NCBI GenBank assembly: GCA_963765895.1
Contig: CAVXZB010000001.1
Span: 1 to 43,233 of the forward strand
Source of the DNA: an uncultured Nitrososphaeraceae archaeon
GTDB taxonomy: Archaea; Thermoproteota; Nitrososphaeria; Nitrososphaerales; Nitrososphaeraceae
Length of the DNA: 43,233 nucleotides
Direction: 5' to 3'
Shown here: positions 15,077 to 27,720 of the stretch, piece by piece
Position numbering within the stretch: position 1 is the stretch's first letter
How the letters are laid out: each line of letters begins with the position of its first letter
Made by a program: the position numbers and the translations under genes
The notes under the pieces: model-generated
Database searches by the model: none
What the model saw: only the letters and a program-made list of their open reading frames with translations
Told to the model about the DNA's origin: nothing

Positions 15077-15186
15077 CATCCTACTAATTCATAATACGTA
15101 TCACCTTGATATTTCAAATATTCAATTTTAGTAGTCTATAGTTTTGTATAATAAGCGTGAATAAATTGTCTGATCTCTAAATTAGT
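15077..15186 (+). repeat. Dispersed repeat copy B (left half); includes the left 75-bp direct repeat 15112-15186
   Basis: catcctactaattcataatacgtatcaccttgata followed by 75 bp identical to 27251-27325. Confidence 0.95.
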
Positions 15187-15231
15187 ATATTTATTATCCT
15201 TGAAATGCCTGTAGCTGTTTAGTCTTTCGCA

Positions 15232-15570
15232 AAAATGTAATTGTGCTATTGTATACTATGTATAATGAGCATGACTAACATGTCTAATTTCTAAATTAGT
15301 CTATTTGCGTATTTTAACAAACGATGAGAAGAAATAAGAAGGAGTTTGTTCCTGACTCCAATACTGGATACAGGATTGTTACTCCTATGTGATGAATGTG
15401 ATATATGTGATCCAGATTCATTATTCAAAGTATTGTCATAGATATCGTTGAAGTTGTTTTTGTTATGTGAAGTATTATTTTCTGTTTCATCACATACATC
15501 ACATACATCACATTGCGCTTTTCAGTTATCATCGTTAGTCCATGTGAGTACAAAGATTTCTCACTAACCT
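15232..15570 (+). repeat. Repeat sub-unit plus iteron arrays plus degenerate MCM 3' end (homologous to 38953-39140 and 39460-39610)
   Basis: 15232-15411 aligns to 38953-39134. The minus strand of 15470-15570 reads KVSEKS./VLTW...QCDVCDVCDETENNT, compared with MCM IVSEKPIVLKW...TCAACDICDEVNNT. Confidence 0.85.
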
Positions 15571-15671
15571 TCATAAAGATCCTTAGTTATAGTTTGAAAA
15601 AGAATGATATTTTCTAGGGATTTTTTGGGCATACAGGTATAAACATGGAACGTTACCCGATAATTGTAGTC

Positions 15672-15977
15672 CTACTGCATAGGTTTTGGCTTTAACATAA
15701 CTCTCATTCCACCCTCACCTTTAGCACTAACTACAAGTTTCAGTGCCCCTCCAGTTTCCATCATACCACTAATCCATAATTCAATAGATTCTACATGATA
15801 CTGTTTGAACCAATCAGCTATTGATTCCATACTTGTTGACAGGTGTTTTATTATCTCGCCACTACCGCCTTTTGAAATGTACTCATCATCTTCCTCTTGT
15901 TCATATTTTGGAAATGCTAGTTCTATCTTACCATTGTTTCTATTGCTATCGTCCTTATTGTCTATAGGATCTTCCAT
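15672..15977 (-). CDS. Small peptidase-co-occurring (Pepco/Trypco-like) protein
   Basis: 101 aa, acidic N-terminus, then YHVESIELWISGMMETGGALKLVVSAKGEGGMRVMLKP (Gly-rich alternating beta-strand pattern). Divergent from the caspase-like gene. Confidence 0.55.
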   Translation of the reverse strand: MEDPIDNKDDSNRNNGKIELAFPKYEQEEDDEYISKGGSGEIIKHLSTSMESIADWFKQYHVESIELWISGMMETGGALKLVVSAKGEGGMRVMLKPKPMQ

Positions 15978-16232
15978 AATTTTTAATCACGGACTAATTA
16001 TTTATAATTAAATTTGTTTGTCAATCTTATGATTATTAACAACTATTATGTTGGCAAAATAATTTTTCCGTATCATATGTTCAAATTGCTGCTGAAAAGC
16101 AGAGTATATTCTTATTTATTAATACCACATATTAAGAAGATTTAAATAATTACTTCGATTTACGGTAAATTATTGATTGAATTTGCTATGTCTATTTAAT
16201 GAAATAAAATTCAATGACAGTGAATGGGGGCT

Positions 16233-24059: not shown

Positions 24060-24161
24060 TCGCTATAGAGGCCGCTAATTGCAAAGATTTTATGATCTAA
24101 TTTATTCAGGCAAAGATGTATTGTGTTAAATTAATAAATGATTTTCTTCCTTCTAATAGGT

Positions 24162-26992
24162 TTAAGTTTTATTTGTTATAAATTCCATGGATAATGGATC
24201 AGTATCTCCTTGGCAAATAAAAGCCCCCCAGTAAATTGGATCAGGGTTTTTTTCCTTTATACAAAGTTGGGCCTTCCGCAAAGCCTCTCCACGTGGCTCT
24301 CCCAAAATCAATCTTCTATAAAAGTTTATCATCAGCTCATTTGTTTGTTTAGCAGGTATTTTCCAAAGACTCATAATTAATGTCCTTACCCCTGCTAATG
24401 CAAACGTACGTTGTAAACCAAATACTCCTTCTCCATTTATTATATAGCCTAATGCCGTATCACAAGCTGAGAGAACTACCATTTCTGTATTTGATAAATC
24501 CATATCTGTAATATCGTGTGCAAAAAGAACACCATTTCCTGCTCTATCAGGTAAAAGGCAATCTTGCAAATATCCATTTGCACCTGCTAATGCAAGCCCG
24601 GAATTAAATAGCGGATTGTTGATTAATTTCCTATGATACAATTTATTCTGCTCAAGTTCATCACTTTTATTTTCTCCATAAAAGTCTAAATCAACAAAAA
24701 AACCATGAGTTGCTAGATGCAGTATATAAGGTGAATTATATTTCATAATGTCATTCTTTAATACACAATTACCTAATACTGGTTCTACCCTTAACATAGT
24801 AGCAATATCTTTTGCCCCTTCTTCTATTCCCTGTAATGGCCGAAAATATATGTTGTCGGGATCAATTTTTTTGGGCTTTTTTCGTCTATTAAATTGAAAT
24901 CGGGATTGGATGCAATAACAGGATTATTGAGAATAGTTGCGGGTTTTATATTTTGATGTAATAAATCACGAGAAGTATTGAGATAACTTATATAATAATC
25001 ATCAATCAATCTTTCATCATTTTTCTCAGTAGTAGGTAAGACTTCAAAAAGGGCAGCATCCTAATGTTACCATCTGGTGAAATTAACAGTCGTTTACTAG
25101 AACAAATGAGATTTAATAGCGGTTCAAATAATAAAGATCTTAATTCATAGCCTTCTTTTGTAATTAGGCTATTTCTTTCACTAATTGCCTTTTCAATGTC
25201 TTCTCCTTCATATCGAAGATCAGTTATTGATTTTATAAATGCAGATACGTGTTTATCTATAACATCTGCTTCAAATTGAAGCACCTGTACGTCTTCTGGT
25301 TTTCCTGCCTTTATGATAAATGCCAAATAACGATAAGTAGTAAATTTAGGATAACCATGTGAATCCAGAACCTCAAAATTAAATATAGGAGTTTTAAAAA
25401 ATTCAACCAATGTAGATTCTAGTGGCAACATACTTGCTATTTCTTTCATATTGATCTCTTCCATTGTTTTTAGAAAATTAATTTCTGGCATAACCCTTGC
25501 TATCTCTTGTTCCACCATCAAGAGTCTATTCGATAATTCATTGATCTCCTCCTTCTGAGAAGAGGATCCATAATTAGCTGAGGAAGACACTACTATGTCA
25601 CGGATGTGTCTGTTAAGATCATCTCTTTCTCTTAACTTTGCTTGAATAACTGGATCCATTTTGTCATTTACCAGAGTCTTTTTTATTGTTGAAAGAGCTT
25701 CTCCTACCCCTCCCTTTCGTTTCAATACTAAATCAAATGATTTACCAATGAGTAATGATGAATTAGAAAAATGCTGAATGACAAGATTTAAAAATGCATA
25801 TACAAAATTCATCTCTATCCGCATAAAATTCATCATTGTCGAATCAATACCTGTAGCAAATACTTTGGAAAGTATAAAATCATGAATATGTATGCCTTCC
25901 TCCAATAATACAATTGCATCCTCATAACGTTTGATCAAGATATACAGTGATGCCAGAGGAAGGAGAGTTGCTGAATAATCTAGAGGATTTTGTCCTTTTC
26001 GTATGTCTTTAGCCTCTAAAAACTTAGATTCAGACAAGTCATATTTTCCTAATTTATAGTAAATTATACCTAAGTTATTCAAAATAAATGCACGTCCCTC
26101 AGTTTTCCCGCCTTTTATGATTTCTAAAGACTTAAGATAATATTGTTCAGCTAAGTCATAGTTTCGTCTCATGCTATACAATTGACCTAAACCATTAAGA
26201 CTTTGTGCATACTCTACACTCTTATCTCCGAAATTAGTAAGCCTCATATCCATTGATTCTTTATAAAGAGGCTCTGCAGCATCATAATCTCCTAAATCAC
26301 AATATAGATTCGCCAGAGAATTTTTTATTTTAGACATAAAGGTGGGATCAAAATTTGCATTACGACTAATTTCTATTATTTCTTTATAACAATTTACAGC
26401 CAGCCACCACTCTCCAATATTCTTATACAATTCGCCTATTTTGAGCAGAACATCTGCATACCTCCGATCTGTGTTGCCTAGATTACTAAACATAATATCC
26501 TTTAATTTATTATAACAATAAATCGCTTTTACAAAGTCTGATCTTTTCTCATGAATGTCTCCTAGATGGTTTAGGGCCTGATCATAAAAGGAGAACTTTT
26601 CTCCTAATTTACTGCCACGAATCTTGAGTGCATCCATCAGGTATTGTTCAGCTTTTTCATAGTCTTCAGTCACATTGTATAGCATGGATAACTTTTCAAG
26701 AGTTGAAATATACTTCTCGTTGTTAGTTTCTAAGATTTTTTTGTATCTCTTTTATTTTTATTGTTTCCTCTAAAGCTTTATAATAGTCTTTTTTTGCTTC
26801 ATAAACGTCTACCAAGAGTAATGAATAATCGACATAAGGCTCACTGTATTCGCCATCATCGTTGCGAATAATATCTAACATATGAATTGCATATTCAAGT
26901 GCTACATCAAATTTGCCGTCTTTAAAATACTTTTCAAAAAATGACCAGCAATATTTTATGAACTCTTTTGAAGATTCTAACAAATCTATCAC
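24162..26992 (-). CDS. TPR-CHAT (caspase HetF-associated) protease; 3 frameshifts in homopolymers
   Basis: TPR_12-like repeats (YAQSLNGLGQLY), VLKRKG, LVEFF, LLISPDG...LPFEVL, NPDFN, ILHLATHGFF (His), SGLALAGAN, VVLSACDT (Cys), LIMSLWKI, PIYWGAFICQGD. The four ORF pieces join at A/T runs near 26740, 25048 and 24868. Confidence 0.9.
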
Positions 26993-27052
26993 CCTACTGA
27001 AAAGATAAAGTATTAAAAGTTAGCTGAAGTCACACTCTTTATTTATGTTAAA

Positions 27053-27098
27053 ATCTGATTATTTTTTGATTTCATATCTGATTATTTTTTGATTTCAT
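27053..27098. repeat. Perfect 23-bp tandem duplication
   Basis: atctgattattttttgatttcat x2, about 60 bp upstream of the CHAT gene start. Confidence 0.95.
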
Positions 27099-27250
27099 AA
27101 GTGCGATAAGATTTCGCCTTCTTTAGGAGACTTGATTTGTACTATTGAAAATTATGTGTTTGGTGTCCAGGTAACAAGGAATAAGTCTCAAGACTTAAAC
27201 GTAAATACTATTTACCAATTCAAACGATATTCTCGATTCGGCTTAGTATT

Positions 27251-27720
27251 TTTCAAATATTCAATTTTAGTAGTCTATAGTTTTGTATAATAAGCGTGAA
27301 TAAATTGTCTGATCTCTAAATTAGTCCATTTATGCATAAAGCTATCTATAATTGACCGAGGATAAGGTAGGAGTCATTCCTGACTCCAATACAGGAGATA
27401 TAAAAATATGGATTTCCACCTACGCATATTCCTGGTGAAGACATGATACAAGTTAAATCAACTTGACCGATTATCTTATTCCCTTGACTTTATACCTAGT
27501 ATTCTTGTTGAGGCCCTCGAGACGAGTAACTTCCATCACGGTCCGTCCTCTTCCATTGTTTCCATACTCTAATTTATGATAATCATTACATGTATTCACT
27601 AGATGCCCAATTTTATAGGATTGGGAACAGGTTTGGATCGCATATTGCTTGCTCTATATAATATATTTAGTCTTAACGTTCACCAAAAACGCGATTTCAC
27701 TATATACTATCATATAACAA
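27251..27720 (+). repeat. Dispersed repeat copy D (right half); begins with the right 75-bp direct repeat
   Basis: 27251-27325 is identical to 15112-15186. It continues ggagtcattcctgactccaata...tattcttgttgag...aaaaacgcgatttcactatatactat, homologous to 38591-38990. Confidence 0.9.

Follow-up and report, generated by a model that had tools for sequence, protein, structure and literature searches.

A 12,139-bp segment between exact 75-bp cores in a Nitrososphaeraceae contig, a candidate decayed MCM-type integrated element with predicted gasdermin and caspase genes

Two identical sequences of 75 bp lie 12,139 bp apart in the genome of an uncultured Nitrososphaeraceae archaeon, and they raise the question of what the DNA between them is and how it came to be there. 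The window analysed here is the entire contig of 43,233 bp, one of 88 in a 4.9-Mb draft. In a first-pass annotation made from the letters alone, the DNA between the two sequences was taken for a mobile defence cassette without an integrase that uses a dispersed repeat as a landing pad. The present analysis gives somewhat better than even weight to reading it as a discrete, variably present and decayed integrated element of the MCM type, inserted and removed across a shared 75-bp core. Archaeal amoA is present in the genome (C24:168102-168652, broken there across three reading frames), the relatives bearing the repeat are labelled Nitrososphaeraceae, and the metagenome runs containing the region are from soil.

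Base-by-base extension by script delimits the two core copies as follows.

15112..15186, plus strand: left core copy, resembling a left attachment site (attL)
27251..27325, plus strand: right core copy, resembling a right attachment site (attR); repeat unit D starts at its first base

The match is exactly 75 bp long with a start-to-start distance of 12,139 bp, and the segment is made up of 12,064 unique bases and one core copy. The perfect duplication described in the first-pass annotation is thus borne out, as is its hand count of about 13 differences in a further copy at 38591-38665 (13 of 75 positions by computation). A search of the whole assembly with the core gave 10 matches, of which only two have 100% identity, the next best being 84% identical. 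Since members of the repeat family are otherwise 13-25% apart, the 75 identical bases are not due to chance.

The cores are parts of a non-coding repeat unit of about 340 bp, found by self-comparison and genome search, which consists of a 5' part, the core and a 3' part. The following units and flanks are present in the window.

12208..12548, plus strand: unit A, complete; starts where homology to congeners downstream of a TIM-barrel gene stops
15077..15196, plus strand: unit B
15077..15111, plus strand: 5' part of unit B, 35 bp common to units A, C and E
15187..15435, plus strand: about 10 further bp of unit B, then a diverged second unit, B' (15199-15435)
21084..21473, minus strand: unit C, full and inverted, abutting an insertion sequence (IS)
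26993..27250, no strand: right inner flank, called X, with no similarity to the repeat family and no integrase remnant
27251..27476, plus strand: unit D, beginning at the first base of the core and going on with the 3' part
27326..27563, plus strand: 3' part of unit D; collinearity extends to 27476 for unit A and to 27563 for metagenome loci L071, L075, L077 and L079
38482..39156, plus strand: unit E, complete (38482-38817), followed by E' (38921-39156) as second unit; the pair adjoins the 3' end of an MCM gene

The two units at the segment ends are truncated in complementary fashion, the left one being cut 10 bp after the core and the right one starting at its first base, and homology drops off sharply at both the outer and the inner edges of the cores. 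Units B and D overlap in just 86 bp (96.5% identity, the central 75 exact), and the cores are thus direct repeats overlapping one target, as at attL and attR. About 95-130 bp upstream of the left core are common to the metagenome copies L074 and L080. The presence of a normal 5' part on the left and a normal 3' part on the right, as first described, is supported by the matches of 15077-15111 and 27326-27476, and removal of the insert does restore one unit: the flanks, joined in silico, are collinear with uninterrupted metagenome copies. The accompanying statement that the inner flanks do not continue the repeat applies to the right side, where nothing family-like precedes 27251; it fails on the left, where the repeat goes on for about 10 bp (15187-15196, two mismatches to the right copy) before B' begins.

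Units A, B, D and E share one orientation in a series that ends at an intact MCM element, and unit C holds a 52-bp stretch 94% identical to 38217-38268. Weaker copies occur on contigs C17 and C84. The repeat family is rare; unit E matched 4 of 61 genomes of the archaeal family, its own included, and the core motif was found at 19 loci in species-representative genomes, only two of them in Nitrososphaeraceae and the rest chance matches in other phyla. Viral contigs gave no match to the core pattern. The units were ruled out as coding sequence by stops in all frames, and a tRNA or known RNA was ruled out as target, there being no tRNA or Rfam family in the window. In locus L034 (G077:C502, positions 1501-1775), the initial 93 bases of the 5' part are directly joined to an internal piece of an integrase of the type found on contig C3, which lies on the opposite strand; homology breaks there about 17 nt before the first base of the core, which is a further breakpoint near the left edge of the core.

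Four soil runs of one study (X1-X4) hold parts of the region as contigs assembled at k=31, which were placed on positions 11300-30000 at 90% likeness. Comparison with relatives had been proposed as one way to find an empty site, and such a site was found in X1, where one contig (depth 4.6) joins 15111 to 27251 through a single core, skipping 12,139 bp. All 75 core letters of this joint fit either side, and its shorter side has 39 letters. The joint is accepted because the insert is uncovered in the same run: depth is 0 in bins 15668-18163, 18788-20035 and 22532-26899 and at most 0.25 in the other non-IS insert bins from 15668 on. The flank bins of X1 are all covered, at 2.3-4.1 on the left (11300-15043) and 1.8-4.4 on the right (27524-30000), and the flank contigs listed have 0-2 differences each. 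X2 and X4 have contigs on parts of the insert that differ from it at 0-1 positions. One X4 contig (15157-15392, 0 differences) runs from the core into B', and the X2 contigs listed have depths of 2.5-3.2 on the insert versus 2.9-3.4 on the flanks. Run X3 holds the flanks and traces of the insert only, and nothing is drawn from it. Filled and empty versions of the site therefore occur among closely related populations, with exactly one core retained in the empty one.

This empty site with a single attachment copy, seen in one contig of one study, is accompanied by diverged, uninterrupted copies in three metagenome loci. In L074, an unbroken sequence leads from the left flank (starting at about 14982) through the core into a 3' part. 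L071 and L079 run from the 5' part across the core and along the right flank as far as 27563, and about 1.1 kb beyond they match 29340-29387. By their alignment, these copies may be counted as weaker support for an uninterrupted site. Assembled genomes were tried as another source of the empty form, and an 18.7-kb query against 40 relatives matched only the TIM-barrel gene and IS copies. The DNA downstream of the TIM-barrel gene is different in all five congeners compared.

A connection with intact elements is seen in a congener, G006. Positions 6321-6683 of its contig C399 hold a module of core, 10 bp and second unit that is collinear with 15113-15357 (81% identity over 249 bp); its start coincides with the first base of the core to within 1-2 nt. 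SnoaL, histidine-kinase and IS genes lie to the left of the module. To the right are genes for a helicase, an NYN protein, an intact MCM of 716 amino acids, a SprT-like protein, a winged helix-turn-helix protein and, near the contig end, a tyrosine recombinase of 423 amino acids. With chromosomal genes on the left and MCM and integrase genes on the right, the core in G006 is the edge of a complete MCM-integrase element. The 5' part is missing from the first base of the core onward only in unit D and in the G006 copy. Among 12 metagenome loci fetched, 11 match the units of the window. L075, L076, L077 and L081 are dimers with the junction of core, 10 bp and second unit seen in unit B, and L078 and L080 are monomers running directly into an MCM-like remnant. 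MCM-tail matches are found in L075, L076, L077 and L078, and the C-terminal part of a G006-type integrase is matched in L076, L078 and L081.

The MCM element at the end of the series in the window is represented by one gene.

39239..41577, minus strand: MCM helicase gene belonging to the neighbouring element, here spread over two frames

It belongs to a stretch (35471-43233, with a TIR-like gene, units E and E' and the MCM gene) that occurs three times in the genome, on C1, C3 and C33, with 99.3% identity; these copies may be true paralogues or co-binned strain variants. The C3 copy runs on into an integrase gene (SAM-like and catalytic domains) about 740 bp past the end of this contig, followed by ordinary metabolic genes; a tyrosine recombinase near the MCM element, which the first-pass annotation had suggested looking for, is thereby located. 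Across the genus, multi-copy segments form a mosaic around the boundary of the C3 element. A segment of about 650 bp just upstream of the C3 integrase (C3:26898-27554, or L082 6898-7554) is multi-copy in several congeners. Among the copies listed, at least five lose homology at the same point (about C3:27554), give or take a base; the segment may represent either the conserved end of an element or a short non-autonomous element. The copies of 35471-43233 on C3 and C33 terminate in an IS of about 945 bp that has dozens of genomic copies at about 95% identity.

The insert itself retains a trace of the same family, together with an IS.

15417..15554, minus strand: 50 codons left of an MCM C-terminal tail, with 46% identity to residues 602-651 of the 716-residue G006 MCM
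20135..21091, plus strand: IS5-family element, its DUF4096 and DDE_Tnp_1 pieces spread over several frames; a copy on C48 has about 90% identity to it

The 50-codon remnant is all that the insert holds of an element-borne replication gene. No integrase or integrase remnant was found in the insert by tblastn with the proteins of two intact relatives and 18 genomic integrase frames, and PF00589 has no match on this contig (24 elsewhere in the genome); the earlier claim that the insert lacks a recombinase agrees with both searches. Integrase remnants beside units C and E were considered and rejected, the matches having E-values of 0.1-0.3 against a 3-kb database and none below 0.5 against the whole window. 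The segment combines attachment-like repeats, no recombination module and homology to an intact element family, which is the pattern of integrase-less elements flanked by attachment sites. As to its genes, the caspase, TPR, gasdermin-like and CHAT genes and the MCM end were correctly listed in the first-pass annotation, and the IS5-family element and the inverted unit C were omitted from it. The "Pepco-like" gene of that list is unconfirmed, and its "iterons", repeats of TGTGAT/CATCACATA, are the CDVCD / SHxSH codons of the MCM tail remnant.

The favoured history is the following. The segment would descend from the cryptic integrated elements (CIEs) of Nitrososphaeraceae that carry MCM and an integrase, and would have lost its integrase and all of its MCM but 50 codons. 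Its landing site would be one unit of the repeat family, which adjoins MCM genes and marks element junctions. Recombination across the 75-bp core common to element and target would then produce two identical cores, and the reverse reaction would leave one. A circular intermediate is predicted, with a junction of X, core, 10 bp and second unit that has the same form as the G006 boundary. Catalysis may be provided in trans by the tyrosine recombinase of a related resident element, candidate helper integrases being present in the same genome, for example on C3. The perfect identity of the cores implies that those of element and target were identical at the last recombination, and fits repeated excision and re-insertion at the locus within the population. 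As A, B, D and E have the same orientation and end at the MCM element, the region appears to be a series of element-derived islands joined by units. Of the earlier reading as a mobile, integrase-less cassette, the discrete unit, the empty form, the lack of a recombinase and the link to the MCM and integrase family stand, while the status of satellite is something that we infer. The same products would arise through host homologous recombination over the 75 bp as through an integrase supplied in trans, and the two are not separable here.

Several observations weigh against an integrated element that moves by way of a circle. The evidence for the empty site is a single short contig from a k=31 assembly, placed at 90% likeness in runs of one study; the 39-letter side of its joint lies entirely within the 5' part of the repeat, and joints placed at a likeness below 95% can stem from repeats. 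The circular junction is beyond the reach of k=31 contigs, as the 75-bp core is longer than k. No second genome with conserved flanks was found, six of six congeners sharing only the TIM-barrel gene (11303-12211) and IS copies. In L075, L076, L077 and L081, a complete 5' part precedes the junction of core, 10 bp and second unit; a junction so common in the family is not in itself proof of the one expected of a circle (attP). A second core copy, which would mark the other end of the G006 element, was not found in the 85%-complete assembly of that genome, and no convincing repeat links the integrase end of C3 to E and E', the only matches being of 14-23 nt and at chance level.

Some of the evidence would suit a static island with a deletion polymorphism, that is, an old mosaic in which the cores became identical by gene conversion or an old duplication and the empty form in X1 is a deletion by host recombination, with neither circle nor integrase. 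Homologous recombination in the host needs no more than 75 identical bases and no integrase, the insert has no recombinase, and the run contigs fit integration and deletion alike. L080, from a diverged organism, already ties the left flank of B to a unit and an MCM-like remnant at 75-80% identity, which allows the left junction to be old rather than recent, and the remnant itself is old at 46% amino-acid identity. Such an island is possible but not probable, and it leaves unexplained why the complementary truncations overlap in just 75-86 bp, why the cores are perfectly identical while other pairs differ by 13-25%, and why host DNA and element meet at that very base in an independent element of G006. 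An assembly artefact, in which an empty-site chromosome and a separate 12-kb circle with the same 75-bp core were threaded into one contig, is very improbable. The draft has 88 contigs and evident indel errors, the empty form exists, and short-read contigs cannot distinguish an attP junction from attL plus attR; against this, X2 and X4 cover insert and flanks at similar depths and X1 has the flanks without the insert. The pattern of indels described below also suggests a long-read assembly, itself a supposition, in which a 75-bp repeat would not mislead, and an artefact of this kind would still imply a mobile circle with the same core. A casposon-type or DDE-type transposition that duplicated a 75-bp target site would yield two perfect copies by construction, yet it can hardly be the explanation. 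Terminal inverted repeats were not found, the longest inverted match between the segment ends being 9 nt (shuffle mean 9.3), and neither a terminal transposase nor Cas1 is present, the sole transposase being that of the internal IS5. Moreover, the left core, the next 10 bp and the second unit are inherited as one module in other genomes, and the core thus belongs to the element as well as to the target.

A wider alternative concerns the whole series of units. In this reading, the units are capture sites of an MCM-integrase platform, and the DNA from 12208 to the MCM element is an integron-like array of integrase-less, multi-gene cassettes exchanged singly at the core: a polysaccharide lyase between A and B, the gasdermin, CHAT and caspase genes between B and D, and clostripain-like and TIR-like genes between D and E. 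L080 (1399-2056, corresponding to 12503-12742 and 15018-15111 of the window) runs from the left flank of B through one unit into an MCM-like remnant and then a homologue (58% over 53 amino acids) of the 79-residue open reading frame (ORF) to the right of unit A. If the 2.8-kb A-B segment, the one with the polysaccharide-lyase gene, existed as a circle or in tandem, its gene order would look like that of L080. An integron-like array is consistent with this arrangement, in which a single unit connects the right end of A-B with a homologue of the gene at its left end, and with the common orientation of A, B, D and E; we regard it as unlikely. The D-E segment (27789-38163) carries defence-like or surface genes, namely those for an invasin/Big-like protein and for a clostripain (C11) protease fused to a PsbP-like domain (32605-35277), as well as an ORF (37153-38163) that matches TIR weakly.

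Apart from the MCM remnant and the IS, the insert holds the following genes.

15672..15977, minus strand: small ORF, 101 amino acids, with no Pfam family
16291..20041, plus strand: fusion of a caspase (Peptidase_C14) with a long array of TPRs, readable as a single gene despite at least three single-base frame changes
22231..23232, minus strand: TPR-only protein, 333 amino acids
23262..24059, plus strand: gasdermin-fold protein, 265 amino acids
24162..26992, minus strand: TPR-CHAT caspase-like protease in three ORFs (26992-26723, 26685-25006 and 24797-24162), with frame changes at A-runs

The gasdermin-fold protein has 1,470 homologues at E-values up to 0.001 and matches the PADLOC model for bacterial gasdermins (bGSDM) with an E-value of 5.4e-4. 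With a profile of 58 sequences, its sole match in PDB is the bacterial gasdermin 7n50 (E-value 0.033). In a Foldseek search with the AlphaFold model (pLDDT 89, pTM 0.84), PDB ranks 1-12 are all of the gasdermin family, as pores or monomers from bacteria, animals and fungi (RCD-1), with a best E-value of 4.1e-5. TM scores are low (0.26-0.42), as expected when closed and pore states are compared. The CHAT domain (E-value 3e-41, with TPR) lies 103 bp downstream of the gasdermin-fold gene on the opposite strand, and both parts of a gasdermin-protease system, the fold and an adjacent caspase-like protease, are thus found. Based on sequence and model, the cargo is a putative new archaeal member of this kind, with cleavage, pore formation and an anti-virus role as putative activities. 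The gasdermin and TPR-CHAT protease genes and the caspase-TPR gene are predicted to act in protease-triggered cell death. A gasdermin homologue is found in 3 of 151 genomes of the archaeal family, including this one, and the cargo is therefore accessory. Beside the homologues in G020 and G079, no flanking units, CHAT, MCM or integrase were found with the queries used. In the literature searched, we found no paper on gasdermins in Nitrososphaerales or Thaumarchaeota, and the supplementary tables of the gasdermin survey may list archaeal cases.

A gasdermin beside a CHAT or C14 protease with repeat domains is a known bacterial arrangement; as given in the preprint of Johnson et al. (10.1101/2021.06.07.447441), 43 of 50 bGSDMs have a neighbouring protease, 23 of them CHAT and 15 C14. 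As in the Runella operon of bGSDM and CHAT described there, the gasdermin-fold gene stands directly beside a TPR-fused CHAT protease. Unlike the bacterial systems, the present one has an archaeal host and only marginal similarity to solved bGSDMs (the E-value of 0.033 above), and is known here from sequence and model. The 101-residue ORF is placed head to head with the caspase gene, in likeness to the Pepco and Trypco small pore-forming effectors paired with proteases, as Evans et al. (PMC12642450) present them. Unlike these, it has no match to Pepco (PF24393), Trypco1 (PF19493) or any other Pfam family at E-values up to 10 and is unusually conserved: it has 358 homologues at E-values up to 0.01, and the 119 best listed besides the query are 67-85% identical. 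Two of its homologues carry a source name, both being metagenome-assembled genomes of Nitrososphaeraceae. A paralogue at C87:60440-60745 lies 4 kb from another caspase gene, and both genomic copies are thus near a caspase gene. Language-model scores against Pepco/Trypco clusters (0.86-0.89, with 188-205 shared features) fall below the 0.9 mark, and "Pepco-like" is kept as an unconfirmed lead. The TPR genes contain 102-bp tandem repeats up to 97% identical (18794-19155 and 22721-23026), a level of identity that points to very recent expansion or conversion within the sensor arrays.

The frame changes in these genes are probably for the most part indel errors of the assembly rather than signs of pseudogenes. 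This follows from the split amoA gene, from the 16 indel columns that separate the 99.3% identical copies on C1, C3 and C33 (many being a missing C near AGCT or CTG), from gaps in the short-read contigs and from the smooth continuation of the frames. One base is missing at position 12113 in short-read contigs from three runs, and a contig of X2 has two gaps exactly at the first frame change of the caspase gene. The caspase-TPR and TPR-CHAT frames resume smoothly in another frame at each break, some breaks being at A-runs. Together, the indel pattern and the split amoA suggest systematic assembly errors, possibly those of long reads at methylated sites.

Among known elements, the closest in kind are the MCM-encoding CIEs such as NitGar-E6 and NitEve-E3 (Krupovic et al. 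2019, PMC6563490), which, as described there, share with the present segment the host lineage, bounds of direct repeats and MCM as the replication gene of the family; intergenic targets and tandem arrays are likewise described for them. In the figures of that survey, attachment sites of thaumarchaeal CIEs have a median length of 17 bp, lengths above 25 bp are found in only 7 elements, and intergenic insertions account for 15 of 68; the re-use of sites in tandem arrays is also known from it. Unlike the CIEs as that survey characterizes them, this segment has no integrase, 50 MCM codons only and an identity block of 75 bp, far above the median, and its target is the repeat unit of another element rather than a tRNA or host gene. 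New relative to known CIEs are therefore the 75-bp core, the target inside the repeat of another element, and the loss of both hallmark genes with mobility apparently kept. Attachment-like bounds without an own recombination module are a feature of cis-mobilizable elements (CIMEs) and other integrase-less derivatives of integrative and conjugative elements, and of phage satellites. The segment resembles these in its bounds, in the lack of a recombination module and in an array that adjoins an intact relative, which might supply the enzyme. Unlike bacterial CIMEs, it is archaeal and of an MCM-type family, and mobilization in trans or in cis is here a candidate process.

To our knowledge, the mobile elements described from ammonia-oxidising archaea are nearly all static insertions in a small number of genomes. 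Here, an integrase-less element with exact ends is seen present and absent in natural soil populations, and these exact ends make hitch-hiking or helper-dependent mobility in this phylum testable by polymerase chain reaction, long reads and purified integrase. The gasdermin-CHAT pair and the caspase-TPR gene are placed on mobile DNA in Nitrososphaeraceae, and an integron-like array, if true, would give ammonia-oxidising archaea an exchangeable shelf of defence genes.

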